Numbered from the stretch's first letter, positions 10,675 to 31,974 are shown. The stretch: DNA of 52,653 nucleotides from a virus (UHGV-0083175), one strand, 5' to 3'. Notes: generated from the letters alone by a model not told the origin. Program-made: numbers and translations.

Positions 10675-11103
10675 ATGTATTGCCGTGCTGTACCGGTTCT
10701 TGTTTTGATATTAGCCAGTCTGACAACTGGCTGCACAAAAGATGTATCGACAAATAATTATGATGCTTCTCTGTATCACTCAGATAAATTAATAAAGTCG
10801 CAAAATTTGAGCTCATCGGAACGTACCCCTGATGCCAGTGAAGAAATCCGGCTGTATGCCATTCAGGTCAGGAAAGCCATAGAAGAACAGTTAAAGGATG
10901 CGAGTAAGTATTCAGGAAAAGAGTGTTCACTGAGAATGTATATGGCCCCGAATGGTCTTCTGCTACAGGTTAAAAGAGAAAGCGGTGATCCCGATTTATG
11001 TCGTGAAGCGATGAATGCAGTAAAGAATGCTGATATACCATCACCACCGTCTTCAGGAGTATATAAAGCATTTAGAAATGGCGTGCTGGATTTTAAACTC
11101 TGA
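10675..11103 (+). CDS. lipoprotein with TolA C-terminal domain (TolA-III) homology
   Basis: Signal peptide with lipobox LTTGC; C-terminal ~90 aa (GKECSLRMYMAPNGLLLQVKRESGDPDLCREAM...VYKAFRNGVLDFKL) align with E. coli TolA domain III. Confidence 0.7.
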   Translation: MYCRAVPVLVLILASLTTGCTKDVSTNNYDASLYHSDKLIKSQNLSSSERTPDASEEIRLYAIQVRKAIEEQLKDASKYSGKECSLRMYMAPNGLLLQVKRESGDPDLCREAMNAVKNADIPSPPSSGVYKAFRNGVLDFKL

Positions 11104-11168: not shown

Positions 11169-11560
11169 GTGTTAAATCCCTCACAATTCAGTAAGTTGAC
11201 AGTTGCCTGTCAGACTGAGCATTTGTTAAAAAAATTTCGCATGGTGAATCCCCCTGTGCGGAGGGGCGACTGGTGAACGGTATGATCTCTTTGATGATCG
11301 TAAGCGAGAATACGCGGGTTTGGTGTCACCGGGCTGAACTCACCGGGAGGCACCCGGCACCATGCTCATGGTGATACAGAAATGCGGCTTCAGCCCCTCT
11401 CCGGAGGGGCTTTCTTATGGACAAAAAAAGCCCGCGCTGGGAGACGCGGGCGGCAAGGAATAAACAATAAAACGTGAAGTAATACTTCAACTGGCGAATA
11501 ATACCCGACAGTAATCACTCTGCGCAATAGCGCGGCCTTTTTCGAATTGCGGGCTGTAGT
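11169..11560 (+). repeat. structured repeat unit A (with 3' extension shared with unit D)
   Basis: Shares with three downstream units the blocks GTGTTAAATYCCTCACAATTCA, TTGTTAAAAAA, GCATGGTGAATCCCCCTGTGCGGAGGGG, CACCGGGAGGCACCCGGCA and a terminator hairpin. Confidence 0.8.
11239..11416 (+). ncRNA. candidate small RNA, repeat copy A
   Basis: Runs from conserved GCATGGTG to terminator GCCCCTCTCCGGAGGGGC + T-run; 5' CATGGTG can pair with 3' CACCATG; two internal hairpins. Confidence 0.35.
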
Positions 11561-11798: not shown

Positions 11799-12524
11799 AT
11801 GGATGTTGCCTGCTCTGTGGTCCTGATTCGCTATCCGATAGATATTTTTCTTGAAAAAGAAAAAGTTTCACTCGATGCCGGAAGTGTTATGCTTGTTGCC
11901 AGAAATATAAGAGGGCTTTTCTGTGCTTATGCCGACAGAGTGAAAATGGCAGATATAAGTAACAGCGTCGTCAATCAGTATCTGGAAAGGGAGTGTGAAC
12001 TGACGGAGTATACACCGACAAAAATGCCTCTTTATTTGATGTCTGATATTTACAATACGGAACTGGCGGAGGCTTTAATAACCCAGCATAGTGAATCCAG
12101 TGATACTTTGAAGGATTTCTCTGTTATAACCGCATTTTCATGTATCTCCTTATTTGCAACAGACAGGCGTCTGCCATTATTTTTGTCCGGTGCTGTAAAT
12201 AATATCAGCTGTAAAGTAAGGGCTATAATTCAGACCGACATATCGGCAGGCTGGATGCTAGGTGTGATTGCATTACAATTGCATATGAGCGAAAGCTTGT
12301 TGAAGCGAAAACTTAAGGATGAAGGTTATAGCTTTAGTCGGTTGTTGCTGGAGGAGCGAATGCGTGTTGCTGTTAATCTTGTATGTTTCCAGCGAGAGTG
12401 TGGACAAGCGATAGCGGAAAAATGTGGTTACTCAAGTAAGTCCTATTTCATTTCTGTATTTCACCAGTATTATGGTGCACCACCTGAGAGCTATGCATAT
12501 TTGCAGAAAGCAGACGTTATCTGA
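11799..12524 (+). CDS. AraC-family transcriptional regulator (moron)
   Basis: 241 aa; C-terminal double HTH (GWMLGVIALQLHMSESLLKRKLKDEGYSFSRLL...IAEKCGYSSKSYFISVFHQYYGAPPESY); AT-rich. Confidence 0.6.
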   Translation: MDVACSVVLIRYPIDIFLEKEKVSLDAGSVMLVARNIRGLFCAYADRVKMADISNSVVNQYLERECELTEYTPTKMPLYLMSDIYNTELAEALITQHSESSDTLKDFSVITAFSCISLFATDRRLPLFLSGAVNNISCKVRAIIQTDISAGWMLGVIALQLHMSESLLKRKLKDEGYSFSRLLLEERMRVAVNLVCFQRECGQAIAEKCGYSSKSYFISVFHQYYGAPPESYAYLQKADVI

Positions 12525-12892: not shown

Positions 12893-13210
12893 AACATATC
12901 CTGTATATTTATGTTGTTACATACAGGCGCTTTTAGTATCTGCCGCACGGCAGTTGTACTTTAGAATAAGATGCTTTTGTGACTGGTGGTGTTGTATCTG
13001 GGGTTAGCCAGGAGGCAGGTTCAGAGAGTCCGGTGGTAATTATGTGTATGCAGTGGTTGTTGCTGTACCGTGGGCAAGTTCTGGAACTGGCTTCGTCCAT
13101 TGTAGATGATTGTTAGCTGGATATCAGTTACCTCATGGAAATGTTAAATGACTCACAATTCGGTTGATGGACTATTGTCTGATCGATGGAAGTCTTGTAA
13201 AAACGAGCCA

Positions 13211-13377
13211 GCATAGTGAATCCCCCTGTGCGGAGGGGCGTCTGACATGGTCTCCATAGCGATGGTCACAATACGCAGATTCAGTAGTCAGGCTGAATCT
13301 ACCGGGAGGCACCCGGCACTATGCTGCTTATGGTGTATACATAGCGATCGGCCCCTCTCCGGAGGGGCTTTTTTTGT
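13211..13377 (+). ncRNA. candidate small RNA, repeat copy B
   Basis: GCATAGTG...CACTATGC long-range pairing (compensatory versus copy A), conserved hairpins, terminator GCCCCTCTCCGGAGGGGC + TTTTTTT. Confidence 0.35.
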
Positions 13378-13469
13378 GCGGGAAAAGGCTGTGTTGTTAA
13401 GTGTTAAATTCCTCACAGTTCAGATGGTTGATGCTTGCCTGTCTGAGGGGGAGTTGTTAAAAAAGTTCT

Positions 13470-13637
13470 GCATGGTGAATCCCCCTGAGCGGAGGGGCAT
13501 ATCAGCGCAGGTGTTTCTACTCTATCCTTTCTGTGCGGGTTCAGGTGCTGATACTGAACTCACCGGGAGGCACCCGGCATCATGCATATGGTTAACAGAC
13601 ACGTAGCGAAGCCCCTCTCCGGAGGGGCTTTTTTATG
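13470..13637 (+). ncRNA. candidate small RNA, repeat copy C
   Basis: GCATGGTG...CATCATGC pairing with one G-U wobble, conserved hairpins, terminator + T-run. Confidence 0.35.
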
Positions 13638-13729
13638 CAGGGAAAAGGCTGTGTTGTGAAATGTTAAATTCCTCACAATTCATGAGGTTGATGATTGTCT
13701 GATTGATGAGGAGTTTGTTAAAAAAAACG

Positions 13730-13884
13730 GCATGGTGAATCCCCCTGTGCGGAGGGGTGATATCGTATCATTTCATGTGTGGCCGACTGATATCACGGAC
13801 ATTTGTTCACCGGGAGGCACCCGGCACCTGCAGTATACAGAGATTAGGCATACATCCAGGCTCCTCATCGCAGGAGCCTTTTTA
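13730..13884 (+). ncRNA. candidate small RNA, repeat copy D
   Basis: Conserved 5' blocks; terminator replaced by compensatory variant GCTCCTCATCGCAGGAGC + TTTTT. Confidence 0.3.
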
Positions 13885-14115
13885 CATGTAAAAAAAACCG
13901 CTCCCGGGAAGAGCGGTTGGCAAGGAAGCAAGGAATAAATAACAAAACGTGAAGTAATTTATTCAGCACCCTAATAATACCTTAGAGTAATCACCTTGCG
14001 CAACTGTAAGGGCGTATTTCTTTTTTGCGGGCTGTTTTTCTGTGTGACTTTTGTGTTTCCGGAGGTCAGTCCGTGCCTTCTCTGACTCAGAACATTATCC
14101 CGGCCGGGAGGATTC

Positions 14116-18252: not shown

Positions 18253-18786
18253 ATGAACACCAAAATAAAATACGGCCTGTCGGCTGCCGTTCTGGCGCTG
18301 ATTGCCGCAGGGGCGCCTGCGCCTGATATTCTCGACCAGTTTCTGGATGAAAAAGAAGGTAACCACACCACGGCATACCGTGATGGTGCGGGTATCTGGA
18401 CCATTTGTCGTGGTGCCACCAGGGTGGATGGCAAACCTGTCGTCCCGGGCATGAAGTTGTCGAAGAAAAAATGCGACCAGGTTAACGCCATTGAGCGTGA
18501 TAAGGCGCTGGCATGGGTGGAGAAAAACATCCGGGTGCCACTGACCGAACCCCAGAAAGCGGGGATCGCGTCATTCTGCCCGTATAACATTGGCCCCGGT
18601 AAGTGTTTCCCGTCGACGTTTTATAAACGAATTAATGCAGGCGATCGCAGGGGAGCGTGTGAAGCGATTCGCTGGTGGATTAAGGACGGTGGCAGGGACT
18701 GCCGTATCCGCTCAAATAATTGTTATGGTCAGGTATCCCGTCGTGACCAGGAGAGCGCGCTGGCGTGCTGGGGTATCGACAGATAA
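18253..18786 (+). CDS. SAR endolysin (phage lysozyme with signal-anchor-release domain)
   Basis: N-terminal Gly/Ala-rich SAR helix GLSAAVLALIAAGA; E...D...T catalytic motif region EGNHTTAYRDGAGIWTICRG. Confidence 0.85.
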   Translation: MNTKIKYGLSAAVLALIAAGAPAPDILDQFLDEKEGNHTTAYRDGAGIWTICRGATRVDGKPVVPGMKLSKKKCDQVNAIERDKALAWVEKNIRVPLTEPQKAGIASFCPYNIGPGKCFPSTFYKRINAGDRRGACEAIRWWIKDGGRDCRIRSNNCYGQVSRRDQESALACWGIDR

Positions 18787-19121: not shown

Positions 19122-19589
19122 ATGAACCGTGTTCTGTGTGTGGTGATTATTGTCCTGCTGGTAGCCTGTGGTGTGCTTAGTCTGGGGCTGAATCATTACT
19201 GCGATAACGCCATCACCTATAAAGCGCAGCGCGATAAAAAAGCCAGAGAGCTGGAGCTGGCAAACGCAACCATTACTGACATGCAGCAGCGCCAGCGTGA
19301 TGTTGCAGCGCTCGATGCCAGATACTCGAGGGAATTAGCCGATGCGAGAGCTGAAAATGAAACTCTGCGTGCTGACGTTGCCGCTGGTCACCGCAGCCTG
19401 CGGATCAACGCCACCTGTCCAGGTCCCGTGCGTGAAGCCACCGGCACCTCCGGTGTGGATAATGCAACCGGGCCCCGACTGGCAGACACCGCTGAACGGG
19501 ATTATTTCATCCTCAGAGAACGGTTGATGACAATGCAGAAGCAGCTGGAAGGGGCGCAGGAATATATCCGCACTCAGTGTATTAACTAG
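19122..19589 (+). CDS. Rz: Rz (i-spanin)
   Basis: ATG 19122 with GGTGGTGA RBS; N-terminal TM helix then coiled-coil-rich periplasmic domain; contains the embedded Rz1 frame. Confidence 0.7.
19357..19527 (+). CDS. Rz1: Rz1 (o-spanin lipoprotein), embedded in Rz
   Basis: +1-frame ORF inside Rz; lipobox LVTAAC followed by a proline-rich segment. Confidence 0.6.
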
Positions 19590-19612
19590 TATTTTTGTTA
19601 TCCGGAGGATGC

Positions 19613-19837
19613 ATGAAGAAATTACTGGTAACCGTAAAGCCTTTTCAGGGAACAATTCCGTTCCGTATTTTGCAGCGTGGTCGTGTTCTTGTTGAAGGTT
19701 CGTTCAGTGGTAAATGTACGCAATTACACTCCCGGACCTTTCAGGTGAATGCCACGAATGAAGAGCTAACCGTTGAGTGTACGATGAATGCCGCTAAATG
19801 CCGTATGGTATCGGCTGCATTACAGCCAGTGTGTTGA
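19613..19837 (+). CDS. hypothetical small Cys-containing protein
   Basis: ATG 19613 preceded by GGAGGA; 74 aa. Confidence 0.4.
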   Translation: MKKLLVTVKPFQGTIPFRILQRGRVLVEGSFSGKCTQLHSRTFQVNATNEELTVECTMNAAKCRMVSAALQPVC

Positions 19838-20175
19838 GCGACCTTATTATCCATGCGCGGTATTGTCGCCGTATTCCCGTATTAACAGAGACCGCAGCCC
19901 GACAGGGAGACTCCTCTGCGCGAGTGTGCGGGGATAATCAAAAACGATACACACCGGGGTTTACCGCGTTAACGGAGCGCGGCGTTGTCCTCTCATGGTC
20001 GCTGGTCCGGTGCGATGGTGGAAGAAACCTGACGATGTGTTACCTCACAAGACCTGTTATGTCATGTGTCTGATTTGTGATTTAAGTCGGATAATTGTCG
20101 TTGCCATTAAGCAGAGGATTGATGGCCGACAGGGTGGCATTGTTAGAATAAGACTTATTCTTATCTGTGCCGGGA

Positions 20176-20508
20176 ATGAAAATGAAAAGAAATCTTCCGT
20201 TAATTATTTTGTTGTCTTCTCTGGTTATGGGCTGTACGCAACATAAAACAGATATGCCCCGACAGTTGGTTAAGGCATTACCACAATATCCGGCCTATGC
20301 AGCGGCAAATTATATAAAGGGACGGGTTGATGTGAAGTTTGATATTGGTGCTGATGGTACTGTCACCCGAATTGAGTTTATCCGTTCAGAGCCGCACCAT
20401 CTGTTTGATGAGCAGGTTGTAAAGGCGATGGCAAAATGGCGATTTGAGAAGGACAGGCCGCGTAAAGGCGTGAAGAAAACGTTTATCTTTAGTCCTTCTG
20501 CACCCTGA
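20176..20508 (+). CDS. lipoprotein with TonB C-terminal domain homology
   Basis: Signal peptide with lipobox LVMGC; PQYPAYAAANYIKGRVDVKFDIGADGTVTRIEF...VVKAMAKWRFE parallels the TonB C-terminal domain. Confidence 0.65.
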   Translation: MKMKRNLPLIILLSSLVMGCTQHKTDMPRQLVKALPQYPAYAAANYIKGRVDVKFDIGADGTVTRIEFIRSEPHHLFDEQVVKAMAKWRFEKDRPRKGVKKTFIFSPSAP

Positions 20509-20639
20509 TTATTTCATCAGAAATTAATTATCACTCTGTTGTTATTCTGTACATCCCGGCTGGGTAAGTCTTGTTCCGCCGGGTATGAAGATGAAATATT
20601 GTTGGAGGACAGTGGGTACCTGCTCCTGTAACCGAACGT

Positions 20640-20840
20640 TCATTTCTCGTTATTTGTCATGCTGGCCGGACGCAGATGCGTTGCATCTGTTGCCAGCCTT
20701 CTCCTGCAGGCTTCAATAACCCACGCTGAAAAGTTACCGGACCCTTTATGCTCAAGGGCGATGTTGATCTGTTCAATCATGTGATTGGGGAAACGGATAT
20801 TGCGGGTTGTGGTTCTGCGGGTCCGGTTTTTCGATGACAT
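20640..20840 (-). CDS. ribbon-helix-helix (Arc/CopG-like) DNA-binding protein
   Basis: Internal start MSSKNR...; RNIRFPNHMIEQINIALEHKGSGNFSAWVIEACRRRL; homologous to the N-terminus of the satellite gene at 24057..24419. Confidence 0.5.
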   Translation of the reverse strand: MSSKNRTRRTTTRNIRFPNHMIEQINIALEHKGSGNFSAWVIEACRRRLATDATHLRPASMTNNEK

Positions 20841-20881
20841 ATTTATTTCCTTTACTGATTGCCATATGACGGGGATTTTAC

Positions 20882-21247
20882 ATGGCTGAGCTTCGTACAC
20901 TCCAGAGCAGAATCAAAACACTGAATACCCGACGGGTGAATATTCTGAAGGGTGAACAGCGTCGTGTCAGTGGCAGTGCACGTGTTTCCCTCAAGCGTCA
21001 TATCTGGCTCAGGGATGCCGGGCAGTGCTGTCTCTGTGGTCGTGTGGTTGACCTCTGTGACAGTGAACTCGATCACCGAATTGCACTTCAGTTCGGTGGT
21101 GGTAATGAGGAGACGAATCTCTGGACGCTCTGTACCGAATGCCATCGACAAAAGTCTGCTCGTGAAGCGGCGGGTGGTATGCCGGACCCGACGCTGCCGG
21201 AGGTGTCCGGAGGTAGTGGCAGAGCGGACGACATCATCGGACTGTAA
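20882..21247 (+). CDS. HNH endonuclease (packaging-associated)
   Basis: CLCGRVVD...ELDHRIALQFGG...NLWTLCTECH HNH motif; immediately upstream of a cos-like site and terS. Confidence 0.8.
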   Translation: MAELRTLQSRIKTLNTRRVNILKGEQRRVSGSARVSLKRHIWLRDAGQCCLCGRVVDLCDSELDHRIALQFGGGNEETNLWTLCTECHRQKSAREAAGGMPDPTLPEVSGGSGRADDIIGL

Positions 21248-21538: not shown

Positions 21539-22102
21539 GTGCTGACAACGCAAAAACGAAAATTTGCGCTGGCGCTCATGTCCGGGAAAAACAAAACAGC
21601 GTCAGCCATTGCCGCCGGTTATTCGGCGAAGACAGCCAGGGTTAAAGGCTCGCAGCTGGCAAAAGATCCGGAGGTGCTCGCGTTTATAGCCCGTAAGCAG
21701 TGCGAGACGGTAGAGGTGGATGAGGTTCCTGTTTACCGGCAGAAAAAATCAGAGCAGGAGGATAAACCCCGTCGCCGTGAGGCGGCTGCAATACCACAGC
21801 CGGACGAAACAAATCCGGAGATGCCTCTGCCCGTGGTGATATCTCCTGGTATTGAGTATATGGATGACGGTCTTCCCGATCCGGTGAAAGCGATGGGGCG
21901 TCTTCTGGTGGAGAACATTAATACCGACCCCAGGCTGGCGCTGGATGTGGCTTATAAGCTGGCACAGTTCACGCACCACAAAAAAGGGGATGCCGGTAAA
22001 AAATCGGCAAAAGGTGACGCGGCGAAAAAAGCGGCTAACCGTTTTGCGGTGCCACCACCCCCCCGACTGGTGGTGAATAATGATAATGAGGGCAGCGGAT
22101 GA
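21539..22102 (+). CDS. terminase small subunit
   Basis: N-terminal HTH KRKFALALMSGKNKTASAIAAGYSAKTARVKGSQLAKDPEV; directly upstream of the terL N-terminal fragment. Confidence 0.8.
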   Translation: MLTTQKRKFALALMSGKNKTASAIAAGYSAKTARVKGSQLAKDPEVLAFIARKQCETVEVDEVPVYRQKKSEQEDKPRRREAAAIPQPDETNPEMPLPVVISPGIEYMDDGLPDPVKAMGRLLVENINTDPRLALDVAYKLAQFTHHKKGDAGKKSAKGDAAKKAANRFAVPPPPRLVVNNDNEGSG

Positions 22103-22380
22103 TACCTGTGTGGAGCACGGCCTGCCCGGACTGGGCAGAGCGCCTGAAAAAGGGGCTGTCGATTATTCCGGCTCCGATTTACCCGGACCAGGCCGCACAT
22201 GCCCTGGCGATTTTTAAACAACTGCGGATTGTGGATGCACCGGGCAGCCCGACGTTCGGGGAGTCCTGTGCACCGTGGGTGTTTGATCTGGTGGCTGCCC
22301 TGTTTGGCTCCTACGATGCGCAGACCGGTGTACGCCATATAAAGGAAGTGTTCATTCTGATACCGAAAAATAATAGATAA
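22099..22380 (+). CDS. terminase large subunit, N-terminal fragment (gene split by satellite insertion)
   Basis: 93 codons ending ...KEVFILIPKNNR*; the remaining terL sequence resumes in frame ~9.5 kb downstream (...IPKKNSKSTLAAG...). Confidence 0.7.
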   Translation: MIPVWSTACPDWAERLKKGLSIIPAPIYPDQAAHALAIFKQLRIVDAPGSPTFGESCAPWVFDLVAALFGSYDAQTGVRHIKEVFILIPKNNR

Positions 22381-22543
22381 TAAAAAAACAAATAAAGTGT
22401 TTATTTGTTTTTTTCTACGTTTTATCAAATAGTTATGGTTATCTTTGCTCTATGTTTTTATGTGTTGCTAACGGCAGATTTTAACGCTTTGTTGTTGACA
22501 TGGACTAACCGATGAACCATAAACTTTATCTGTAGGGGCATTT

Positions 22544-23779
22544 ATGCTAATCAAACCGTTAAGCCATGTTGAAGTAAAGAACGCAAAACCAAAGGATAAA
22601 GATTACTCGCTTCATGATGGATTTGGGTTGTTGTTATATGTTTCAAGAAAAGGCTGTAAAACATGGCGTTTCAGGTATCAGCACCCCGACACCAAAAAAA
22701 GACAAACGCTTACCATTGGTCGTTATCCAGATTATTCAATAGCTGAGGCAAGAGAGGAAAGGGATAAAGCAAGGAAATTACTTTCAAGAGGTGTGGATCC
22801 TAATGAGTCTAAGCGCAAGGCAAAATCTGAACGAATTATGCTGAGGTCACAGACCTTTGAAAAAATAACAAATAACTGGTTTGAATTGTATTTAAAGGGA
22901 AGCAGAAGGGAAAATACAGTAAAAACAGTTAGCAGAGTTATTAAAGTTTATATTATTCCTGATTTTGGGGGTTGGACGATTTATGATATACGTGCTGATA
23001 ATGTATTGTCAGTTATTAGAAAATATGACGAAACGCCTGCACAGCAACGAAAAATAGTACAGGTTATGCGTCTTGTTATGGATTATGCCGTGAATGCTGG
23101 AATTGTTCAGTTTAATCCGTTGTCTCGTATTCATAAAGCGCTTCCACCTATGGAAGAGAAAAGCTTTAAGGCGCTGCCCATAGAAAGATTACCCGCTTTT
23201 CTTAATTGGCTTGAGTCAGAAAGTTGTCATCCATCAATAACATATGGTCTTCTTTTTATGATGCTGACAATGACCAGACCTAACGAGGCATTAGGTGCCA
23301 AATGGTCAGAACTGGACGTTGACAGAAAACTATGGACCATTCCAGCAGAGAGGATGAAGGGGAAAAGAGAACACATTATTCCTTTATCTTTACAGGCTGT
23401 TGAAGTGATAATGCGAATGAGAAAAATAAAACAAAGTGAGTATGTTTTTTTTGGTGCTCATTCAGTTGCAAAGGCAATAACGAGAGATGCTATTGTCAGT
23501 AGGGTTAATAAAAGCGAGTTTGCAAAGGAAATGACAGTACACGGATTCAGGTCAATGTGGAGCACATTACTCAATGAAGAGGGATTTAACCCCGATGTTA
23601 TAGAGGCTGCACTTGCACATAAGAGCGGAAATACTGTAAGGGATATTTATAACAGGACGTCATATATTGAACAGCGGGTAATAATGATGCAATGGATAGG
23701 TGATTTTGTCGATTCTGCAAGACGTGGGGTTATTGTTAGGACGCATGGTAAACGCGGTTTAAAATTGGTAAATGAATAA
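22544..23779 (+). CDS. int: tyrosine integrase (P4-type)
   Basis: 411 aa; P4-integrase-type N-terminus and C-terminal catalytic domain (HGFRS...LAH...Y); adjacent to the left junction. Confidence 0.85.
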   Translation: MLIKPLSHVEVKNAKPKDKDYSLHDGFGLLLYVSRKGCKTWRFRYQHPDTKKRQTLTIGRYPDYSIAEAREERDKARKLLSRGVDPNESKRKAKSERIMLRSQTFEKITNNWFELYLKGSRRENTVKTVSRVIKVYIIPDFGGWTIYDIRADNVLSVIRKYDETPAQQRKIVQVMRLVMDYAVNAGIVQFNPLSRIHKALPPMEEKSFKALPIERLPAFLNWLESESCHPSITYGLLFMMLTMTRPNEALGAKWSELDVDRKLWTIPAERMKGKREHIIPLSLQAVEVIMRMRKIKQSEYVFFGAHSVAKAITRDAIVSRVNKSEFAKEMTVHGFRSMWSTLLNEEGFNPDVIEAALAHKSGNTVRDIYNRTSYIEQRVIMMQWIGDFVDSARRGVIVRTHGKRGLKLVNE

Positions 23780-23791
23780 GGTGTACAATAT

Positions 23792-23998
23792 ATGAATGAT
23801 ATAAATAATAGTCAGATTTTGTTGCGTGATGATGTGATGAAAAAATTGCGATACAACAACGCGGCTGCTTTTCATATGTTTTTTAACAGAACGCCGGACT
23901 TTCCAAAGCCCTTCAAGATAGGCCGTCGCAATGCCTGGTATGAAGAGGATGTGCAAAATTGGCTTGATGAACAGCGAAGAAAAGCCCTTGAGGAGTGA
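23792..23998 (+). CDS. alpA: AlpA-family excisionase / transcriptional regulator
   Basis: 68 aa; FPKPFKIGRRNAWYEEDVQNWL matches the AlpA/Xis HTH signature; immediately downstream of int. Confidence 0.7.
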   Translation: MNDINNSQILLRDDVMKKLRYNNAAAFHMFFNRTPDFPKPFKIGRRNAWYEEDVQNWLDEQRRKALEE

Positions 23999-24056
23999 AC
24001 GTAAAAGAACAGGCGTCCTTAAAGGTCGCCTGTTATGTAGTAGTGGAATATTACAA

Positions 24057-24419
24057 TCATGTTTTTTTTGATGCTATGTAAGCAAGAATGCACGGTTCCT
24101 TTGCCAGTTGTGACCCTTTCGATCTGGCTGTTTTCGCACTGTATCCAGCAAGAATAGCGCACTGTGTCTGATTCAGCCCTTTCATCATGTAATCAGCAAA
24201 TTTCTTTTTTTGCTTCGTCAGCTTGTTTGTTTGGTCGTTTTTATCATCGTTTGCGGTAAAAACATTAGATGTGGTCTTAAGCTGATGTTTACAGGCTTCA
24301 ATTACCCACGATGAGAAGTTGGAGTGCGCTTTATCTCTTTCTATGCGTTTTTCAATATCAGCTAATAAGTCAGGCGGGAAGCGGATCCCCTTAAGTATCG
24401 CTTTGCGTGTTTTGTCCAT
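24057..24419 (-). CDS. RHH domain fused to a terS-like HTH domain (putative satellite regulator)
   Basis: N-terminal GIRFPPDLLADIEKRI...NFSSWVIEACKHQL (RHH); C-terminal KKKFADYMMKGLNQTQCAILAGYSAKTARSKGSQLAKEP near-identical to the helper TerS N-terminus. Confidence 0.55.
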   Translation of the reverse strand: MDKTRKAILKGIRFPPDLLADIEKRIERDKAHSNFSSWVIEACKHQLKTTSNVFTANDDKNDQTNKLTKQKKKFADYMMKGLNQTQCAILAGYSAKTARSKGSQLAKEPCILAYIASKKT

Positions 24420-24692
24420 TCATGGCCCCAAAATAAGTAGTGTTAACTTGTTACTATTTAACAGTTTTTGAGGGTGTGTTAAACAAAAAACTGGTTTGTG
24501 TTTAACGAAAATCGCTTCGTGTTAAACACGTTGCCTAGTTAGTGGGGACAGATGACGAGTTGATCAAACCTGCCGGATAACAGGCAAAGAAAAGGCCACC
24601 TGTCACGGTGGCCCTTCGACACAAATTTCGCGTTATCCCCAACGCATGAGCATCGCCGACAATGCCACATTTACGGCTGGTGGACAAGGCTA

Positions 24693-24920
24693 TCAGCCAG
24701 GCGGTCGGTTTTTAGTGGCTTTTAACCGCCGTGGGTATTTCTCGACAAAATCTTCAAGGGCAAATTTTTCTGGTGGCATTAAGCGCGGCGCTGGTGGTGG
24801 TATTTTTGTTCTGGTTAGTTCTTCCTCAACTCTGGCGCAGGCTTCTGACTGCCTTTGCCGGATGATTTCATCATCTTGCGTTTGCGTGTCTTGTATTGGT
24901 GATAGTGTGTTGTTGGTCAT
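24693..24920 (-). CDS. hypothetical protein
   Basis: 75-aa minus-strand ORF downstream of the small RHH gene; weak RBS. Confidence 0.3.
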   Translation of the reverse strand: MTNNTLSPIQDTQTQDDEIIRQRQSEACARVEEELTRTKIPPPAPRLMPPEKFALEDFVEKYPRRLKATKNRPPG

Positions 24921-24977
24921 GATACTGCCCTGTAAAGCAATGCGCCGTAGTACCTCACACCACGGCGCTGATAGTGA

Positions 24978-25157
24978 TTATTCTGATTCTTTGGCCTTGC
25001 GGCGCTGGCGGCGTTTGATCTCGCCTTTTGCTGCCGTAACTAGAAATCCGGCGGTACTTTCGCCAGGTTCTTTAAGTTGCTCAATATCGGTCATTACCTC
25101 ATGCGGGATTCTGACCGTTGTCATTTGTGATTTTGCGTTCTTTGCACCTGTTGCCAT
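24978..25157 (-). CDS. small DNA-binding protein (possible satellite repressor)
   Basis: 59-aa ORF with AGGAGA RBS (MATGAKNAKSQMTTVRIPHEVMTDIEQL...); faces a divergent promoter region containing inverted repeats. Confidence 0.45.
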   Translation of the reverse strand: MATGAKNAKSQMTTVRIPHEVMTDIEQLKEPGESTAGFLVTAAKGEIKRRQRRKAKESE

Positions 25158-25177
25158 TTCTGGTTCTCCTGATAATC

Positions 25178-25270
25178 GGTGTATTTCAGTATACGCAAAA
25201 AAAAAGATAAAAAAAGTCTTGCGGTGTATTTCACCTGAATGTAGATTTAAAAATGAAGGTGAAATACACC
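25178..25270. promoter_or_regulatory. operator-like inverted repeats in the satellite divergent control region
   Basis: GGTGTATTTCACC (25223-25235) and its exact reverse complement GGTGAAATACACC (25258-25270), plus a third half-site GGTGTATTTCAG at 25178. Confidence 0.45.
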
Positions 25271-25343
25271 TAAAACAACAACGCCCCGCAGTGATGGGAA
25301 CACATACGGGGCGTCTAACCAACAACGTAAACGAGGAGCCGTT

Positions 25344-25541
25344 ATGGTTGCCGTAAATCATATACCACACCTTGTACACACACAAACGGCCTTTGTGTGG
25401 CGTTTTCTGGCACTGAGTGCCGGAGAATCTCAAATCATCCACGTAACCGCCTGGACGGAACGCGAAGCGCGTAACCGTTGCCCGTCCGGTTGTGTTGCTG
25501 TATTTGCCGCCCGTATTCGTCAGGAGGTGCGCCATGATTAA
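25344..25541 (+). CDS. hypothetical protein (first gene of the satellite rightward operon)
   Basis: 65-aa ORF with GAGGAG RBS. Confidence 0.35.
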   Translation: MVAVNHIPHLVHTQTAFVWRFLALSAGESQIIHVTAWTEREARNRCPSGCVAVFAARIRQEVRHD

Positions 25542-25746
25542 TCTGTCACTTACTGACCTTAACCGCATTCAGTTTCGTGAGAAATTCACAGGGCAGCTAC
25601 TGGTCAATGTGGATAAAGGTCGCGTGGTGTGTAATTACCACTTACCAGATGAAGCAATTGTCGCCACAAGGGAATCATTACAGGAAATCACAAAACGTGC
25701 CGGAATGATTAACACGAATATTCAGGGGATGCTTTATGCACAATAA
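25534..25746 (+). CDS. hypothetical protein
   Basis: Internal ATG with CAGGAGGTG RBS; 70 aa. Confidence 0.4.
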   Translation: MINLSLTDLNRIQFREKFTGQLLVNVDKGRVVCNYHLPDEAIVATRESLQEITKRAGMINTNIQGMLYAQ

Positions 25747-25975
25747 AACCACACCGGACGCAGCCGCCGAAGCCATCAAAACGCTGATGCACGCGCTGAT
25801 TGATATTTCTGTTATCGCGGACAGGGCACATAAGCACGCCACCAGCGAAACAGAATATGCCGGTGCTTTCGTTCCTCACTCACTGGCTGTCATGCAATTT
25901 AGTGCTGATACGGCGCTGAATGAGGCCAAAGCTATCCTGATTGCTGATTGTGAAAATGGGGGGGGTTATGCGTGA
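25736..25975 (+). CDS. hypothetical protein
   Basis: 79-aa ORF, translationally coupled to neighbours. Confidence 0.35.
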   Translation: MHNKTTPDAAAEAIKTLMHALIDISVIADRAHKHATSETEYAGAFVPHSLAVMQFSADTALNEAKAILIADCENGGGYA

Positions 25976-26201
25976 TGATCGTTTTAATTCCCTGAAACAG
26001 GAATTTTCCGGCGTTCCTGATGATGCGGCTGATGCGCTTTCGTCAATGCCAGAACTTATTAGAGCGGCTTTTTTCTTACTTTCCACGAGAGAATATAAAT
26101 CAACGGGGCTTGATGTACTGAATATCGCCGCCGATTATGCGGAATATGTGGCAGAGGCGCGTTATAGAAGAAAATTTCCTGAGGATGTAAGCCATGCGTG
26201 A
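25968..26201 (+). CDS. hypothetical protein
   Basis: Internal start MRDDRF... of ORF 25941..26201. Confidence 0.35.
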   Translation: MRDDRFNSLKQEFSGVPDDAADALSSMPELIRAAFFLLSTREYKSTGLDVLNIAADYAEYVAEARYRRKFPEDVSHA

Positions 26202-26427
26202 TATTTACCACCAAACAATAGACCGCGCATTTCTTGCACTTTCTCACAGTGAAAACATGATGGAAATATTGCGCATATGGCTTGAAACACTTGGCGACAA
26301 TGAACGCGACAAACAAAAATCAAGAATTGCCACGGCATTAATAACGCTTCTTGAGCCTGTAATAATGGAACTGCAAGAAATAGATCTATTGCACGACAGA
26401 TATAAAGAACAGCACATCGGAGAATAA
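26194..26427 (+). CDS. hypothetical protein
   Basis: 77-aa ORF overlapping the upstream stop. Confidence 0.35.
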   Translation: MRDIYHQTIDRAFLALSHSENMMEILRIWLETLGDNERDKQKSRIATALITLLEPVIMELQEIDLLHDRYKEQHIGE

Positions 26428-26432
26428 AAATA

Positions 26433-26732
26433 ATGAAACTTAAATATTCTGGCTTAACTGCCAGTGGCAACACTCACCCTAAATTTACGCGCGGTGATAT
26501 TTACCGCGACCAGTACGGCGGCACGGTAATGATTAAGGGCGTGGCGGGACGGTGCGTAACTTACCGCCGTGAAGGTTACGAATATGATTGCGTGATGCCT
26601 GTTTATCAGTTCCGGCGTGATTTTTCTCTGGTACAGACCGCGCCGCATAACGTGCCCACCAGCAACGCCAGGGCACGGGCAAACATCCAGAAGCTGAAAA
26701 CCATGATTAACGGATTCAGGGGTAAAAAATGA
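26433..26732 (+). CDS. hypothetical protein
   Basis: 99-aa ORF immediately upstream of the primase-helicase gene. Confidence 0.4.
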   Translation: MKLKYSGLTASGNTHPKFTRGDIYRDQYGGTVMIKGVAGRCVTYRREGYEYDCVMPVYQFRRDFSLVQTAPHNVPTSNARARANIQKLKTMINGFRGKK

Positions 26733-28126
26733 AACTGGCACCGAATGTAAAACTGTTACCGAAAGATAAACACACCGAAGCGGTTATTTTTGCGGGTGAT
26801 AATGCTCACTCATTTGCAGAGCACTACATCATTGCACAGGCCAAAAAAGCAGGCGATCCAGTCCCTCCCGTTTACCTGGGGCGTTATCAGTTAAGCGAAC
26901 TGGATAACTTGCAGATTGTTGATAAAGGTCGGTTCAGGGCGAAAGTGATACGTGCCGGAAATATTGACGAAGTGCAGTTGTTAACCATCGCCACGAAACT
27001 GGCAATCGCAGGAGTCCAGGAAGCGCGCCTGTTTTCTGAAAATTTCGAATTGCTGGAGGAATGGAGCGACCAGCTTACACGGCTTAGGGAGACATGGGAA
27101 CGCGGGGAAAGCCTGAGCCACCAGCGAAAAACAAAGCTACCGATGAGCGTTGGATCTGCCGGATACGACACGCAATTAGATTACGTGGTAAAGGGGATTA
27201 TTCCGGCATCGTCGCTATGCAGCATATACGGGGCGAGCGGTTCATATAAATCGTTCCTTGCGGGTTCGTGGGCGTGTCACGTTTCCACGGGCCGCCAGTG
27301 GGGAGGCCGCAGGGTTGCACATGGTGCAGTTCTCTATGTGGTTGGTGAAGGCGGTATTGGTGTTCCGCGTCGTGTAAAAGCCTGGGAGGTTGTGCACGGT
27401 GAGCAGGTGAAAAATCTGTATCTGGTAAACCGTCCCATCTTTCCGGCTGTCCCGCTTGATGTTGATGAAATGGTTATCGCTGCCCGCCAGGTGGAACGGG
27501 AAACCGGTAAACCTGTACGCATGATTATTCTGGATACGCTGGCGCGTTGCTTTGGCGGCAATGATGAAAATGACTCCCGCGACATGGGGGCATTTATCCG
27601 TGGTTGTGACGAGCTTAAACGGCGCACAGGGGCCACTGTGCTGGTGGTTCACCATTCCGGCAAGGATGAAACAAAGGGGGCGCGTGGTTCCAGTGCATTT
27701 CGTGCTTCGCTGGATGCTGAATACCGGATACGCAGGGAGGACGCAGGAAGCGAAGCGCTGGTTATCTCATGCACCAAAATGAAGGACGCGGAGGAACTCA
27801 AAGAGGCTGCCTATGATTTGCGGGTGGTGGAGCTTTTTACCGACGCTGACGGGGAGTTAATCACGTCGCTGGTGGTGGTGGATAAGTCGCGCCCTCCCGT
27901 TGAACTGGAGCGCATCGAAGAGGCAGGCAACAAGACGGAAAACCATACCGCGCTATGGGGGTGTATCCGTTCACGCACACAGAACGGCGACAAGTGCACG
28001 ATCCCGCTGTTACGTGATGACATGAAAAAACTGGGGTACGAAATAAAGCACTTCCGGCGCTGGCTGGGCAAGCTGGAAAAAGACGGCGTTATCTATGTTG
28101 ACGGCGATGATGTAGGGCCACTGTAA
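26729..28126 (+). CDS. satellite replication protein (RecA-fold primase/helicase-type ATPase)
   Basis: 465 aa; Walker A-like GASGSYKSFLAG, Walker B region MIILDTLARCFGGNDEND and VLVVHHSGKD. Confidence 0.75.
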   Translation: MKLAPNVKLLPKDKHTEAVIFAGDNAHSFAEHYIIAQAKKAGDPVPPVYLGRYQLSELDNLQIVDKGRFRAKVIRAGNIDEVQLLTIATKLAIAGVQEARLFSENFELLEEWSDQLTRLRETWERGESLSHQRKTKLPMSVGSAGYDTQLDYVVKGIIPASSLCSIYGASGSYKSFLAGSWACHVSTGRQWGGRRVAHGAVLYVVGEGGIGVPRRVKAWEVVHGEQVKNLYLVNRPIFPAVPLDVDEMVIAARQVERETGKPVRMIILDTLARCFGGNDENDSRDMGAFIRGCDELKRRTGATVLVVHHSGKDETKGARGSSAFRASLDAEYRIRREDAGSEALVISCTKMKDAEELKEAAYDLRVVELFTDADGELITSLVVVDKSRPPVELERIEEAGNKTENHTALWGCIRSRTQNGDKCTIPLLRDDMKKLGYEIKHFRRWLGKLEKDGVIYVDGDDVGPL

Positions 28127-28328
28127 AAAGTGGGGGGCAAAAGTGGTGGGCATGGGGAATTTAACAAAATTTAAACACGACCCCCCACTTTTTGACCTGT
28201 ATACATCCCAAAAAGTGGGGAGCAAAAAAATACTTATGAAACAGCATGATAAAAATTACAAATCCCACGCCTTTAACGAGATGGGGAATTGTGAAAAGTG
28301 GGGAGTAAAAGTGGGTATAGGTGGGGAG
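28127..28328. repeat. iteron cluster (candidate satellite replication origin)
   Basis: Repeated AAAGTGGGG(A/G) motifs at 28127, 28140, 28210, 28294, 28307, 28320 plus inverted copy CCCCCCACTTTTTG at 28181, directly after the replication gene. Confidence 0.5.
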
Positions 28329-28580
28329 ATGACACAAAAACGCAGAGACAGAACACAGCCAAAATATAAAGCGTTAGACATGACAGAGCACGCTTTAAAG
28401 GTGGCAATCAGAACGATAGACCGCCACGCGGGGGAAGGATACGCGAAGGAACATCCCGACCTGATAAGCGCATTCATGACCACAGCGGCGGCAAACTTTG
28501 CCACGCTGACAGAACGGGAGATTGCCGAAGCGGAACAGGTAACAACCATCAACGTTAAAACCGGAGAGTTGGAATCATGA
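28329..28580 (+). CDS. hypothetical protein
   Basis: Internal start MTQKRRD... chosen because upstream codons lie in the iteron region. Confidence 0.35.
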   Translation: MTQKRRDRTQPKYKALDMTEHALKVAIRTIDRHAGEGYAKEHPDLISAFMTTAAANFATLTEREIAEAEQVTTINVKTGELES

Positions 28581-28882
28581 GCGAACCAAAATTTGGTGAA
28601 AAACTTTACAAGCACAACGGACGGATCACGATTCTGCAAATAAGCGCAGCTACACCAGGCTGGTGGGTTGAAACAGACGAAGGATCCTCACCCGTGGCAT
28701 CATGGGCGCTTTGTGCGCTTAGTTACCCTGACCGCGATGTGTATCAGGATATTCTGCCTGTGATATCCACTGACAAAGGCATGAAACCCGTAGACATCAA
28801 AAACATGGGTTTTCAGTGCGTAATGCTCACTGAAAAAATGATGGAAGAGATGAAAAAGAACAACGCCGGATCGCTTCACTGA
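28577..28882 (+). CDS. hypothetical protein
   Basis: 101-aa ORF overlapping the upstream stop. Confidence 0.4.
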   Translation: MSEPKFGEKLYKHNGRITILQISAATPGWWVETDEGSSPVASWALCALSYPDRDVYQDILPVISTDKGMKPVDIKNMGFQCVMLTEKMMEEMKKNNAGSLH

Positions 28883-28891
28883 GGTGGCAAT

Positions 28892-29290
28892 ATGACAGCA
28901 CAAATTGCAGCTTACGGGCGGCTGGTGGACGACCCGCAGGTAAAACAGACCAGCAAGGGCACACCGATGACGCTGGCGCGTATGGCGGTATCTTTGCCAT
29001 GCAGCCAGGCACAGGACGGACAGGCGACGTTATGGTTATCGGTCATCGCATTTGGCAAACAGGCCGACTTCCTGGCTAAACATCAAAAAGGAGATGTTGC
29101 CAGCGTATCCGGCACGATGCAGGTAAGCCAGTGGACAGGCCAGAACGGCGAAACGCGGCAGGGCTGGCAGGTTATCGCAGACAGCGTAATCAGTGCCCGA
29201 GGCGGGAACAGACGCAAAACCACAGGCACACAGGGTAATCAGCCACCAGCGGGAGGCGATGACCCTTACGGTGATGGTATTCCGTTCTGA
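28892..29290 (+). CDS. ssb: single-stranded DNA-binding protein
   Basis: OB-fold-like core (LARMAVS...LWLSVIAFGKQAD...) and acidic C-terminal tail ending DDPYGDGIPF. Confidence 0.7.
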   Translation: MTAQIAAYGRLVDDPQVKQTSKGTPMTLARMAVSLPCSQAQDGQATLWLSVIAFGKQADFLAKHQKGDVASVSGTMQVSQWTGQNGETRQGWQVIADSVISARGGNRRKTTGTQGNQPPAGGDDPYGDGIPF

Positions 29291-29300
29291 GGGGGTGAGG

Positions 29301-29573
29301 ATGGTACATGACCGCATAGCGGAGGAACTCGAGGCGAAAGGATTTTACCGGAGGGCGGCGGCGCGATGGGGTGAAGTCATGCAGCTGGTGGAGACAGACA
29401 AGGAACGGTATCAGGTTACGATGCGACGGCTGGAATGTTCCAGGAAGGCACAGAAGCCACCGGAGCCGCCGGATAACTTCGGAGACCTGAGAAAGGCAGT
29501 CGATCGCACTTATGCTGAAATGGGTATAGATGGTGCAGGCGATGAAGTATGGCGTAATTACCCAGACAGCTAA
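29301..29573 (+). CDS. PerC-family transcriptional regulator-like protein
   Basis: Internal ATG 29301; AEELEAKGFYRRAAARWGEVM resembles the PerC/Pch N-terminal motif. Confidence 0.45.
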   Translation: MVHDRIAEELEAKGFYRRAAARWGEVMQLVETDKERYQVTMRRLECSRKAQKPPEPPDNFGDLRKAVDRTYAEMGIDGAGDEVWRNYPDS

Positions 29574-29579
29574 GCACAT

Positions 29580-29603
29580 AGCCGGAGCAATCCGGCTTTT
29601 TTT
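29580..29603 (+). terminator. rho-independent terminator
   Basis: AGCCGGA-gcaa-TCCGGCT stem followed by TTTTTTT. Confidence 0.6.
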
Positions 29604-29691
29604 CGATCTCACATATCTTTAAAAATGGTTGATTGATTATAATCTATCGAAAATAATGATTATGAGATGATAAGCATCAGGAGGAAACAAA

Positions 29692-29886
29692 GTGGAACAG
29701 ATAAAGCAAAGCGCTACCGTGATGATTGATCACGAGATCCTAAACGAGCTTAAAAAACTTCAATTCGATGTTATTCGCCGGATGAATGAAGCTGGTATAT
29801 ACGGCAGAGCCGCCACGCCAACAGTAGGCCATCTTGCTCGCGTGCTGTTACGCGAACGCCTGGGCATTGCAACAGGTGAGGAATAA
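29692..29886 (+). CDS. hypothetical protein
   Basis: GTG start after AGGAGGA RBS; 64 aa. Confidence 0.35.
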   Translation: MEQIKQSATVMIDHEILNELKKLQFDVIRRMNEAGIYGRAATPTVGHLARVLLRERLGIATGEE

Positions 29887-29888
29887 CA

Positions 29889-30050
29889 ATGGTTATCACA
29901 GAACGCGAGGCAAGCATCATTAAAGCCATTGGCGAGGAAACAAGAGACACGATAGCGCCATTAATGGAAAAGATCGCAGAGCTTGAGACACGAATAAACA
30001 AGCTGAGTGATGAAGTTGAAGGCCTGATCTCGTTACTCGGTGAGCAATGA
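29889..30050 (+). CDS. small protein resembling the N-terminus of the helper head-associated repeat protein
   Basis: 53 aa, MVITEREASIIKAIGEE... versus MNERELSIIRALGEEF... at 36907; ends at the satellite cos-like site. Confidence 0.35.
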   Translation: MVITEREASIIKAIGEETRDTIAPLMEKIAELETRINKLSDEVEGLISLLGEQ

Positions 30051-30112
30051 CAGGGGGGGGGGAGTGTTCCGGCCGGAAAGTCGATCGCCCTGGACACCGC
30101 CCCCCGTCTCAT
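30051..30112. other. candidate cos site of the satellite
   Basis: G-run, GTCGATCGCCCTGGACACC core and C-run, paralogous to 21250..21312. Confidence 0.45.
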
Positions 30113-30180
30113 TCGTAGAAAATTTTGCTTTTCAAAAAAGTTACACGAAAAGTTACACCCCCTCAAAACGAGGTTTTTGC

Positions 30181-30669
30181 ATGGCATTAACGACCAAAAA
30201 AAAGCGGTTTGCTGATGCGTTATCAAGGGGCGCAAATCCCACGGAAGCCGCTATACATGCGGGATACAGCGAAAAGACCGCAAGGGTTAAAGGCTGGCAG
30301 CTATCCAACGATCCTGAGGTGAAAAAGTATCTTAAGGTTGTCACTCCTGATGTAACTTTTCAGGTTACAAAACCGAAAAAAGTTACAAAGAAAGTTACCG
30401 AAAAAGTTACACCGGAACGGGCATCAATCAGCACCATAGAACGGATGGACAACGGCTTGCCCGACCCTATCAAAGCTATGGGCAGGATACTGGCTGACAA
30501 CATAGACACAGATCCAAAACTGGCTTTAGATGCCGCGTTTAAGCTGGCCCAGTTCACCCACCGCAAGATCGGCAGCATTGGGAAAAAAGAGGTTAAAAAA
30601 CTCAATGCCGCGAATGTCTCCTCAAATCGGTTCCCCATCCCTAAGCCACCAACAGGCTTAAAACACTGA
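30181..30669 (+). CDS. terminase small subunit (satellite copy)
   Basis: Internal ATG 30181; N-terminal HTH KKRFADALSRGANPTEAAIHAGYSEKTARVKGWQLSNDPEV and C-terminal LALDAAFKLAQFTH homologous to the helper TerS. Confidence 0.75.
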   Translation: MALTTKKKRFADALSRGANPTEAAIHAGYSEKTARVKGWQLSNDPEVKKYLKVVTPDVTFQVTKPKKVTKKVTEKVTPERASISTIERMDNGLPDPIKAMGRILADNIDTDPKLALDAAFKLAQFTHRKIGSIGKKEVKKLNAANVSSNRFPIPKPPTGLKH

Positions 30670-30680
30670 GGTAGCGAACT

Positions 30681-30842
30681 ATGAACGAATACATCACAGA
30701 CCCTATTGATGTACTCACGGAAATCATGAACGACAAGCAGCAGCCAACCGAAATACGGTTACAGGCTGCCGCTGTTCTGATGCCATATTTTCACGAAACT
30801 CTAACCCCATGTTACCAGGAGGAAGAAGATGATGATTTCTAA
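30681..30842 (+). CDS. hypothetical small acidic protein
   Basis: 53-codon ORF between satellite terS and the MCP-like gene; not in the supplied track. Confidence 0.3.
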   Translation: MNEYITDPIDVLTEIMNDKQQPTEIRLQAAAVLMPYFHETLTPCYQEEEDDDF

Positions 30843-31755: not shown

Positions 31756-31974
31756 TGTAGTGCGCCGCATTACTGGTTATGTGAATGCGGCGCATAGGGC
31801 CTACGAAAAACAAAATTAGTTTACGTTATCTTATGTAACCATATTTAACGGAGAAGACTAAAACGCGGACTATTTAGTGTCAGTGCGTGAGCCTAACAGC
31901 ATAATAAACAAGATATTAAGATAGCTTTACGCATACCCAAAAAAAACAGCAAGTCCACGCTGGCTGCCGGGATC

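Follow-up and report, generated by a model that had tools for sequence, protein, structure and literature searches.

What does a lipoprotein that carries the C-terminal domain (CTD) of TonB do in the bacterial envelope when it is encoded by a prophage? The question is raised by a short gene in the window (the whole stretch of 52,653 nucleotides of viral DNA, UHGV-0083175, that was analysed), which holds a prophage of lambdoid, Stx-phage-like type. An earlier note, made from the sequence alone, had read the product as a periplasmic mimic of TonB and had coupled it with a second lipoprotein of the same prophage, carrying domain III of TolA, as decoys for both energy-transducing systems of the envelope. 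The decoy idea follows readily from the domain content, and the architecture is widespread and directly testable.

Gene, start codon and selection

The TonB_C lipoprotein gene (Table 1) encodes a product of 108 amino acids. The earlier note had placed the open reading frame at 20176-20508; its frame and 3' end were retained, and its start was moved two codons downstream. Three in-frame start codons are present, GTG 20167, ATG 20176 and ATG 20182, and the last of these is the likely start, because a GGGA lies 6 nt upstream of it, the aligned phage 21 allele has ATA where the window has ATG 20176, and the PGAP annotation gives the 108-aa form. The GGGA leaves no spacing to ATG 20176, and the AGGA aligned to it is the annotated ribosome-binding site in phage 21.

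Judged by its coding sequence, the gene is real and under purifying selection. Comparison with the phage 21 allele (71% amino-acid identity) gave a dN/dS of 0.12 at a dS of approximately 1.5, where synonymous sites are near saturation. The GC content of the gene was 44%, compared to 54-55% in the flanking genes, and this difference of ten points from the surrounding phage genes fits an accessory insert. With respect to the other features of such inserts ('morons'), a consensus promoter and terminator were not found and a weak extended -10 element was present.

Table 1. Positions of the TonB_C lipoprotein gene, its parts and other features of the prophage in the window.
Feature	Position	Strand	Evidence or context
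TolA-domain-III lipoprotein, 142 aa, lipobox LTTGC	10675-11103	+	Pfam TolA, E = 4.6e-22
STnc100 copies	11210-11422, 13182-13377, 13441-13640, 13702-13889	+	Rfam RF02076
Lysozyme	18253-18786	+	Late-region gene order
i-spanin Rz	19122-19589	+	Pfam Phage_lysis PF03245, E = 5e-50; upstream of the TonB_C lipoprotein gene
o-spanin Rz1 lipoprotein, embedded in Rz	19357-19527	+	Lipobox ORF
Hypothetical ORF, 80 aa	19595-19837	+	Followed by a 340-nt spacer and the TonB_C lipoprotein gene
Weak extended -10-like sequence TGTTAGAAT	20141-20149	+	Spotted by eye; good -35 absent; missed by consensus scan
Candidate ribosome-binding site GGGA	20172-20175	+	Read from sequence
TonB_C lipoprotein gene	20182-20508	+	
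Lipoprotein signal peptide (predicted), residues 1-18	20182-20235	+	Ends in lipobox LVMGC
Lipobox LVMGC	20221-20235	+	PROSITE PS51257 pattern, fitted by inspection
Tether TQHKTDM, 7 residues, disordered	20236-20256	+	Low AF2 pLDDT
TonB C-terminal domain, about E. coli TonB 153-235	20257-20505	+	Pfam, TIGRFAM, phmmer, AF2/Foldseek
YlcI/YnfO (DUF3950) gene	20640-20900	opposite	Downstream of the TonB_C lipoprotein gene
HNH endonuclease	20882-21247		Late-region gene order
Small terminase	21539-22102		Late-region gene order
Large terminase, N-terminal piece	22099-22380		Split by integrative element
Integrase of terL-inserted element	22544-23779		
AAA_25 protein of terL-inserted element	26729-28126		
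Small-terminase-like gene of terL-inserted element	30040-30669		
Capsid-like gene of terL-inserted element	30829-31755		
Large terminase, C-terminal TerL_nuclease piece	31975-33333		Split by integrative element

Lipoprotein signal peptide and tether

The N-terminus showed the layout of a lipoprotein signal peptide, MKRN-LPLIILLSS-LVMG-C, with K2 and R3 in the n-region and an h-region of 10 residues. The lipobox read in the earlier note is present, and the window protein agreed with the criterion of [LVI][ASTVI][GAS]C preceded by a hydrophobic h-region and an n-region with basic residues. Lipidation is predicted at Cys18 (20233-20235), which would become the N-terminus. The lipobox was kept in 14/14 aligned relatives from six genera. 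At the +2 position, the window protein has Thr and lacks the Asp of Lol avoidance; the aligned relatives have Thr, Ser or Ala, with Asp in 0/14. In E. coli, lipoproteins without Asp at +2 are sorted to the outer membrane by the Lol system. Since the window protein has Thr there, outer-membrane sorting is predicted by this rule, with the protein residing in the inner leaflet of the outer membrane.

In the AF2 model, per-10-residue means of pLDDT were 68 for residues 21-30 (numbering of the 110-aa form) and at least 93 from residue 31 onward. Counted on the alignment, from 7 to about 15-16 residues separate the Cys of the lipid anchor from the conserved Pro that corresponds to TonB P153 in the members of the family.

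TonB C-terminal domain

By sequence profiles and structural model alike, the remainder of the protein is a complete TonB C-terminal domain, with matches far beyond chance. It matched Pfam PF03544 (TonB_C) with E = 5.5e-15 (56 bits, cut-off 24.6) and TIGR01352 with E = 2.6e-15 (56.5 bits, cut-off 27.1). A phmmer search against TonB chains in the PDB gave E = 3e-16 and an alignment without gaps to E. coli TonB 153-231, with 31 of 79 residues identical (39%). The AF2 model, built from seven family sequences, had a pLDDT above 90 for 77 residues from about residue 31. Foldseek superimposed it on three structures of the E. coli TonB CTD, at 0.8 A for the free domain (1u07), at 1.1 A for the one bound to BtuB (2gsk_B) and at 1.0 A for the one bound to FhuA (2grx_C); the probability was 1.00 for the 1u07 and 2gsk_B matches, and every significant PDB fold match was a TonB CTD. 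The TonB signature claimed in the earlier note was thereby confirmed, and the comparison with profiles and structures that it had proposed as a check returned the TonB-CTD fold.

Among the residues of E. coli TonB, P161, Q162, Y163, P164, G174, F180, G186, P198, F202, W213, E216, P220 and F230 are kept in the window protein; the YP motif and the aromatic core (Y163, P164, F180, F202, W213 and F230, E. coli numbering) are thus all present. Y36, W86 and F75 of the window protein were invariant in the 14-member family alignment. The substitutions include Q160 to Leu, R166 to Tyr, R158 to Lys and Y215 to Phe. The equivalent of R166, a residue that forms a salt bridge to FhuA, is Tyr in most relatives as well, and positions 158 and 160 are variable across the family. 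Both the PQYP motif and the final strand VKKTFIFS are present. The latter aligned with TonB beta3, the strand that pairs with the Ton box (2gsk, 2grx), and the window protein ends just past it.

The match to the TonB equivalogs of PRK10819 reached at best 73 bits against a cut-off of 315 and was confined to model residues 152-240. The inner-membrane anchor of TonB is absent, its place being taken by a signal peptide with predicted cleavage at Cys18, and so is the proline-rich spacer that spans the periplasm, leaving a tether of 7 residues only. Because anchor and spacer are both absent, the protein would not be energised by ExbB-ExbD. On its sequence, it contains a TonB_C domain but is no TonB energy transducer.

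Distribution and previous annotation

The family was found in 1616 of 5426 complete E. coli genomes (30%), with the window allele (at least 90% nucleotide identity) in 415 and the phage 21 allele (about 74%) in 1201. Carriers included STEC of serotypes O157:H7, O111:H8, O104:H21 and O91:H21, APEC O18 and O78, and strain Nissle 1917. In the sequenced-phage collection, the gene was carried by Stx1a-converting phages, JLK-2012, Lys8385Vzw, phage 21, ev017, Perceval, three PhiR phages and one Klebsiella phage; one phage from an O103:H11 host carries it as well. An exhaustive profile search yielded short relatives of 107-133 aa which, on inspection, all opened with a lipobox and in no case had Asp at +2. 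Their hosts were E. coli, Salmonella enterica, the Klebsiella pneumoniae complex, Gibbsiella, Rahnella and Erwinia/Pantoea, and one member of the Salmonella cluster alone was present in at least 1000 contigs. The relative in Klebsiella sp. R445 adjoins the lac operon, with no phage genes nearby. An identity of 39% to host TonB points to an old, separate lineage rather than to recent capture.

The gene has been named "partial tonB-like membrane protein" (prophage CP-933N), "TonB fragment", "TonB C-terminal domain protein" (phage 21) and "TonB family protein", the last being the sole name given to relatives outside E. coli. As an object the gene is not novel: besides nearly a third of the E. coli genomes, both phage 21 and Stx1a phages carry it, and it was already annotated. 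It has long been known in this sense, with its function uncharacterised; no functional study was found in the full-text literature. In PADLOC-DB 2.0, no family matched the TonB_C or the TolA lipoprotein at E<=1, and among the BFVD viral structures no significant match to the AF2 model was found.

The family corresponds to PHROG 1267 (E = 1.9e-42), which is labelled "Rz-like spanin" and filed under lysis. This spanin reading was rejected, since TonB_C was the only domain found, with neither an Rz/Rz1 domain nor a C-terminal hydrophobic segment, and since the prophage has a genuine Rz with an embedded Rz1 (Table 1).

Genomic position and expression signals

The same slot and the same late-operon orientation were observed in three diverged clades, namely after Rz/Rz1 (and bor/iss, if present) and before cos/terminase. 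In phage 21 and in the Nissle 1917 prophage, bor/iss is the immediate neighbour of the gene. By this position, the Q-antiterminated late transcript, which also covers the lysis and head genes, would at least include the gene. A consensus scan of 19500-21000 gave neither a plus-strand promoter upstream nor a terminator after the gene, so that TGTTAGAAT was the sole candidate for a promoter of its own. No Fur box was found in the whole window with a 19-nt consensus and up to 3 mismatches.

A perfect palindrome of 17 nt, AGAATAAGaCTTATTCT, was observed at 20145-20161, beside the weak -10-like site and upstream of the ribosome-binding site. It arises from a 13-nt insertion relative to phage 21 and could be an operator or a small hairpin. 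Further upstream, a non-coding stretch of 190 nt (19850-20040) was 85-90% identical between the window and phage 21, despite the saturation of synonymous sites in the gene. It had no match in Rfam and an ordinary folding energy (z = 0.65). The stretch was found in 4147 of 5426 E. coli genomes, with up to 11 copies per genome and 691 places on plasmids. It was rejected as a gene-specific regulator or sRNA on the strength of its missing Rfam match, its unremarkable fold and its occurrence in those 4147 genomes, being far more widespread than the TonB gene; lambdoid phages may use it as a common joint for recombination.

In the window, the large terminase gene is split by an integrative element of about 9.6 kb within 22099-33333. 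From its gene content, the element looks like a capsid-forming, PICI-like phage satellite; because it is inserted in terL, the prophage would be defective. The Nissle 1917 prophage, in which iss adjoins a TonB gene of the phage 21 type, has a porin gene with the annotation ompC (L086 5360-6442) between the Q antiterminator and the holin, another late-region insert for an envelope protein.

The TolA-domain lipoprotein and the question of a pair

The TolA-domain-III lipoprotein that the earlier note had placed in the same prophage is real (Table 1). It aligned without gaps to E. coli TolA 333-420, and its gene (GC 41%) occupies the stx position, after a methylase and two tRNAs and before nanS-p. 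The family was found in 897 of 5426 E. coli genomes (17%). Its commoner subtype (67% identity) lies directly upstream of the holin gene essD. Against PRK09510 the TolA lipoprotein scored 100 bits where the cut-off is 213, and for this reason the name "tolA: cell envelope integrity protein TolA", which PGAP gives to the 142-aa protein in many genomes, was regarded as an over-annotation. In strain 2017.03.02CC, the 2.3 kb just upstream of essD hold, as annotated by PGAP, a CDS for a TolA C-terminal domain preceded by a 5'-truncated tolA pseudogene.

At the stx position, the TolA lipoprotein gene adjoins a gene for an AraC-family regulator (11799-12524; HTH_18/HTH_AraC, GC 41%), which may belong to the same low-GC insert. 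The sRNA family STnc100 was also detected, in four copies (119-172 bits); one follows the TolA lipoprotein gene and three follow the AraC-family gene, one of these three overlapping an ORF of 119 aa at 13247-13606.

The co-occurrence of the two lipoprotein genes was gauged on IMG/VR loci as a sample. TolA was present in 6 of 30 related contigs that carried the TonB gene with at least 8.5 kb of upstream sequence, and the TonB gene in 7 of 11 contigs with TolA of the window type and enough downstream sequence; none of the contigs with the commoner TolA subtype carried the TonB gene. The survey suggested in the earlier note bore out joint presence in some loci, and did not extend it to the commoner subtype. 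The insertion sites differ, with TolA at the stx position and TonB after Rz/Rz1, and both genes together occurred in no sequenced phage of the collection. In the closest E. coli relative of the region, stx2A/stx2c-B stands in place of the TolA gene of the window, and at least 80% of the whole TolA-to-TonB segment was shared by only 10 complete genomes. The enrichment among close relatives is the outcome expected from shared ancestry of one phage lineage. The paired arrangement is thus not a fixed module: on these sequence comparisons, prophages with both putative decoys are genuine, but they are a minority, mosaics in which the two inserts have assorted independently.

Proposed mechanism and alternative explanations

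That the gene exists, is under selection and keeps its position, and that its product has a lipobox and the TonB fold, was observed as described above. What we infer from here on is that the lipoprotein sits in the outer membrane, what it binds, which phenotype it causes and when it is expressed. Our favoured reading joins two propositions, namely that the gene is a low-GC accessory insert ('moron') of lambdoid prophages, and that its product, a TonB head of roughly 10 kDa anchored in the outer membrane, jams TonB-dependent import by competition; on sequence, model and analogy, the two taken jointly fall a little short of probable. Cys18 would anchor the protein in the inner leaflet of the outer membrane, and the 7-residue tether would hold a monomeric TonB C-terminal domain just under this membrane, so that the lipid anchor would raise the local concentration of the domain at the level at which Ton boxes emerge. 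The domain would offer the edge strand and PQYP region with which TonB captures the Ton box; as these are the same as in TonB, Ton boxes would be occupied, those of TonB-dependent transporters without any pulling and possibly also those of incoming group B colicins. Entry of TonB-dependent phages such as T1 and phi80, of colicins and of microcins would be blocked, at the cost of siderophore and B12 uptake.

Published work supports this mechanism on three points. Overproduced periplasmic TonB domain inhibits iron import by TonB-dependent transporters (Howard et al., 2001, as cited in PMC9841981), and the premise from which the earlier note had argued is, to the extent of that citation, found in the literature. 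Both the transporter and colicin M need a Ton box presented to TonB (PMC11658791). In TonB, Q160L is the allele with which FhuA and colicin M regain activity when their Ton boxes are defective (PMC11658791). The window protein likewise has Leu at position 160; little weight was given to this because the position varies in the family. The phage lipoproteins Llp and Cor set a precedent for an acylated outer-membrane protein that disables a TonB-dependent transporter from within the periplasm; their target is the periplasmic face of FhuA, where they overlap the TonB site, and acylation is required for an active Llp complex (bioRxiv 10.64898/2026.03.26.714494).

Other points weigh against a decoy. 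If TonB were blocked in general, the host would be starved of iron and B12. The gene is oriented with the late operon and has no convincing sigma-70 promoter, Fur box or terminator in the regions scanned, and expression in the lysogen, which exclusion or colicin tolerance would need, is unsupported. In the window protein and most of its relatives, R166 of TonB is replaced by Tyr, and positions 158 and 160 vary across the family. The Klebsiella sp. R445 relative without phage genes nearby and the missing PADLOC match point the same way.

Given that lysogen expression left no sign, that the gene has a late-operon position and that the host would pay in iron and B12, a role late in the lytic cycle was kept as the main rival, although we consider it unlikely. 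The lipoprotein would then be an envelope factor transcribed with the lysis genes and acting in the final minutes of infection. It might tie up the CTD of host TonB in a heterodimer or bind the cell wall, and might thereby disable TonB-dependent entry in the lytic phase or assist envelope breakdown; the TolA-III lipoprotein would act likewise on Tol-Pal. The location directly after Rz/Rz1 in late-operon orientation, with no convincing promoter or terminator of its own found, is consistent with such a role, as is the location of the commoner TolA lipoprotein subtype directly upstream of holin essD. The aromatic residues of TonB, which are implicated in CTD-CTD contacts, are all kept in the window protein, in line with a heterodimer. 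The filing of PHROG 1267 under lysis can also be cited, but this label has no domain support, as TonB_C is the only domain matched. The phage, moreover, already has a complete set of holin, endolysin and Rz/Rz1, loss of TonB is without known effect on envelope integrity, and a block of uptake minutes before lysis has no clear benefit.

It is distinctly unlikely that the protein is a receptor-specific mask in the manner of Cor and Llp, inactivating a single TonB-dependent transporter that serves as a phage receptor. In its favour, the small outer-membrane lipoproteins Llp and Cor dock on the periplasmic surface of FhuA and overlap the TonB site. In addition, the window protein departs from TonB at positions 158, 160 and 166, which point towards the transporter in TonB complexes; residues there change from clade to clade, and this variation could tune specificity. 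The fold, however, is that of the TonB CTD and not that of Llp/Cor, and the gene is unlinked to tail or receptor-binding genes and was found alongside various tail modules. In this prophage, J has a receptor-binding end of the lambda/phage 21 type, with 53% identity to lambda J and 67% to phage 21 J. A transporter-specific variant of the competitor was ranked lower because of this type of J and because the gene is linked to the lysis cassette rather than to tail genes. Masking of the phage's own receptor was rejected in addition, J being lambda/21-like and phi80, N15 and T1 being absent among 60 records sampled evenly down the ranking of 279 J matches.

We regard as very unlikely a lysogenic-conversion or fitness factor unrelated to exclusion, for instance one in iron-uptake signalling or in a host interaction like that of Bor/Iss. 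The neighbouring bor/iss in phage 21, Nissle 1917 and many extraintestinal strains would suit it, as would the high prevalence of the gene in pathogenic lineages and the one chromosomal relative outside a recognisable prophage, but nothing points to such an activity, and the only known role of the domain is the binding of Ton-box partners. Finally, a non-functional remnant of a captured tonB, as the older names 'partial tonB-like membrane protein' and 'TonB fragment' imply, is effectively refuted by sequence conservation and selection: dN/dS was 0.12 at a dS of about 1.5, members from six genera have an intact frame, signal peptide and lipobox, the 39% identity to host TonB excludes a recent pick-up, and the AF2 model is compact and of high confidence.

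The competition with TonB may also be viewed more broadly. Natural, outer-membrane-tethered, dominant-negative C-terminal domains of TonB and TolA, carried by lambdoid prophages of Enterobacterales, would then constitute an unrecognised and widespread class of exclusion or tolerance factors that block import, a generalisation that we put forward as possible but rather doubtful. Members of this class would occupy the Ton-box and TolA-box partners that are used by group B and group A colicins and microcins, and T1/phi80-like and filamentous phages would likewise be blocked through these partners.

Implications

If the decoy reading is true, roughly one in three E. coli strains has a prophage gene able to switch off TonB-dependent entry, among them Shiga-toxin producers, extraintestinal pathogens with an iss prophage and the probiotic Nissle 1917. 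Susceptibility to TonB-dependent therapy phages would be affected, as would susceptibility to colicins and microcins in gut competition and to siderophore-conjugated antibiotics, which use the same transporters. A natural lipid-anchored competitor of TonB would also be a tool for studies of how TonB engages its transporters. If, on the other hand, the gene is expressed only late in the lytic cycle, it would point to an unexplored link between phage lysis programmes and the energy-transducing envelope systems of the host.

Comparison with known systems

The closest likeness is to the CTD of E. coli TonB itself (approximately residues 150-239; 1u07, 2gsk, 2grx), with the same fold at 0.8-1.1 A and 39% identity without gaps. 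Both have PQYP, the aromatic core, the conserved glycines and prolines and, at the end, the strand for pairing with the Ton box. The window protein differs in lacking the transmembrane anchor, the proline-rich spacer and the last 4-8 residues of TonB, and since a lipoprotein signal peptide replaces the TonB N-terminus, the domain would be anchored to the opposite membrane. Engineered periplasmic TonB fragments likewise comprise a portion of TonB detached from ExbBD (Howard, Herrmann, Stratilo and Braun, 2001, as cited in PMC9841981). Those fragments were artificial, soluble and overproduced, whereas the window protein is natural and is predicted to be lipid-anchored at the outer membrane. Periplasmic TonB fragments reportedly also affected phi80 and colicin M.

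The TolA-III lipoprotein follows the same design of a lipobox, a tether and the C-terminal domain of an energy transducer that spans the periplasm; it differs from the TonB_C lipoprotein in its longer tether, its insertion site and its occurrence, which is mostly in other prophages. Bor/Iss of lambda-like prophages is likewise an insert for an outer-membrane lipoprotein between Rz/Rz1 and cos, but the protein is unrelated and its gene lies on the opposite strand; bor has a lysogenic promoter of its own. Llp of T5 and Cor of phi80, N15, HK022 and mEp167 are, like the window protein as predicted, small phage lipoproteins of the inner leaflet of the outer membrane. They act on the periplasmic face of a TonB-dependent transporter, specifically FhuA, and do so allosterically. 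No relationship in sequence or fold connects them with the window protein, for which TonB_C and PHROG 1267 were the only matches. The cor gene lies by the tail genes, whereas the TonB_C lipoprotein gene adjoins the lysis cassette. The window protein would thus belong to a known kind, the phage outer-membrane lipoproteins that target TonB-dependent uptake, and what would hypothetically be new is the mimicry of a host domain in place of the Llp/Cor fold.
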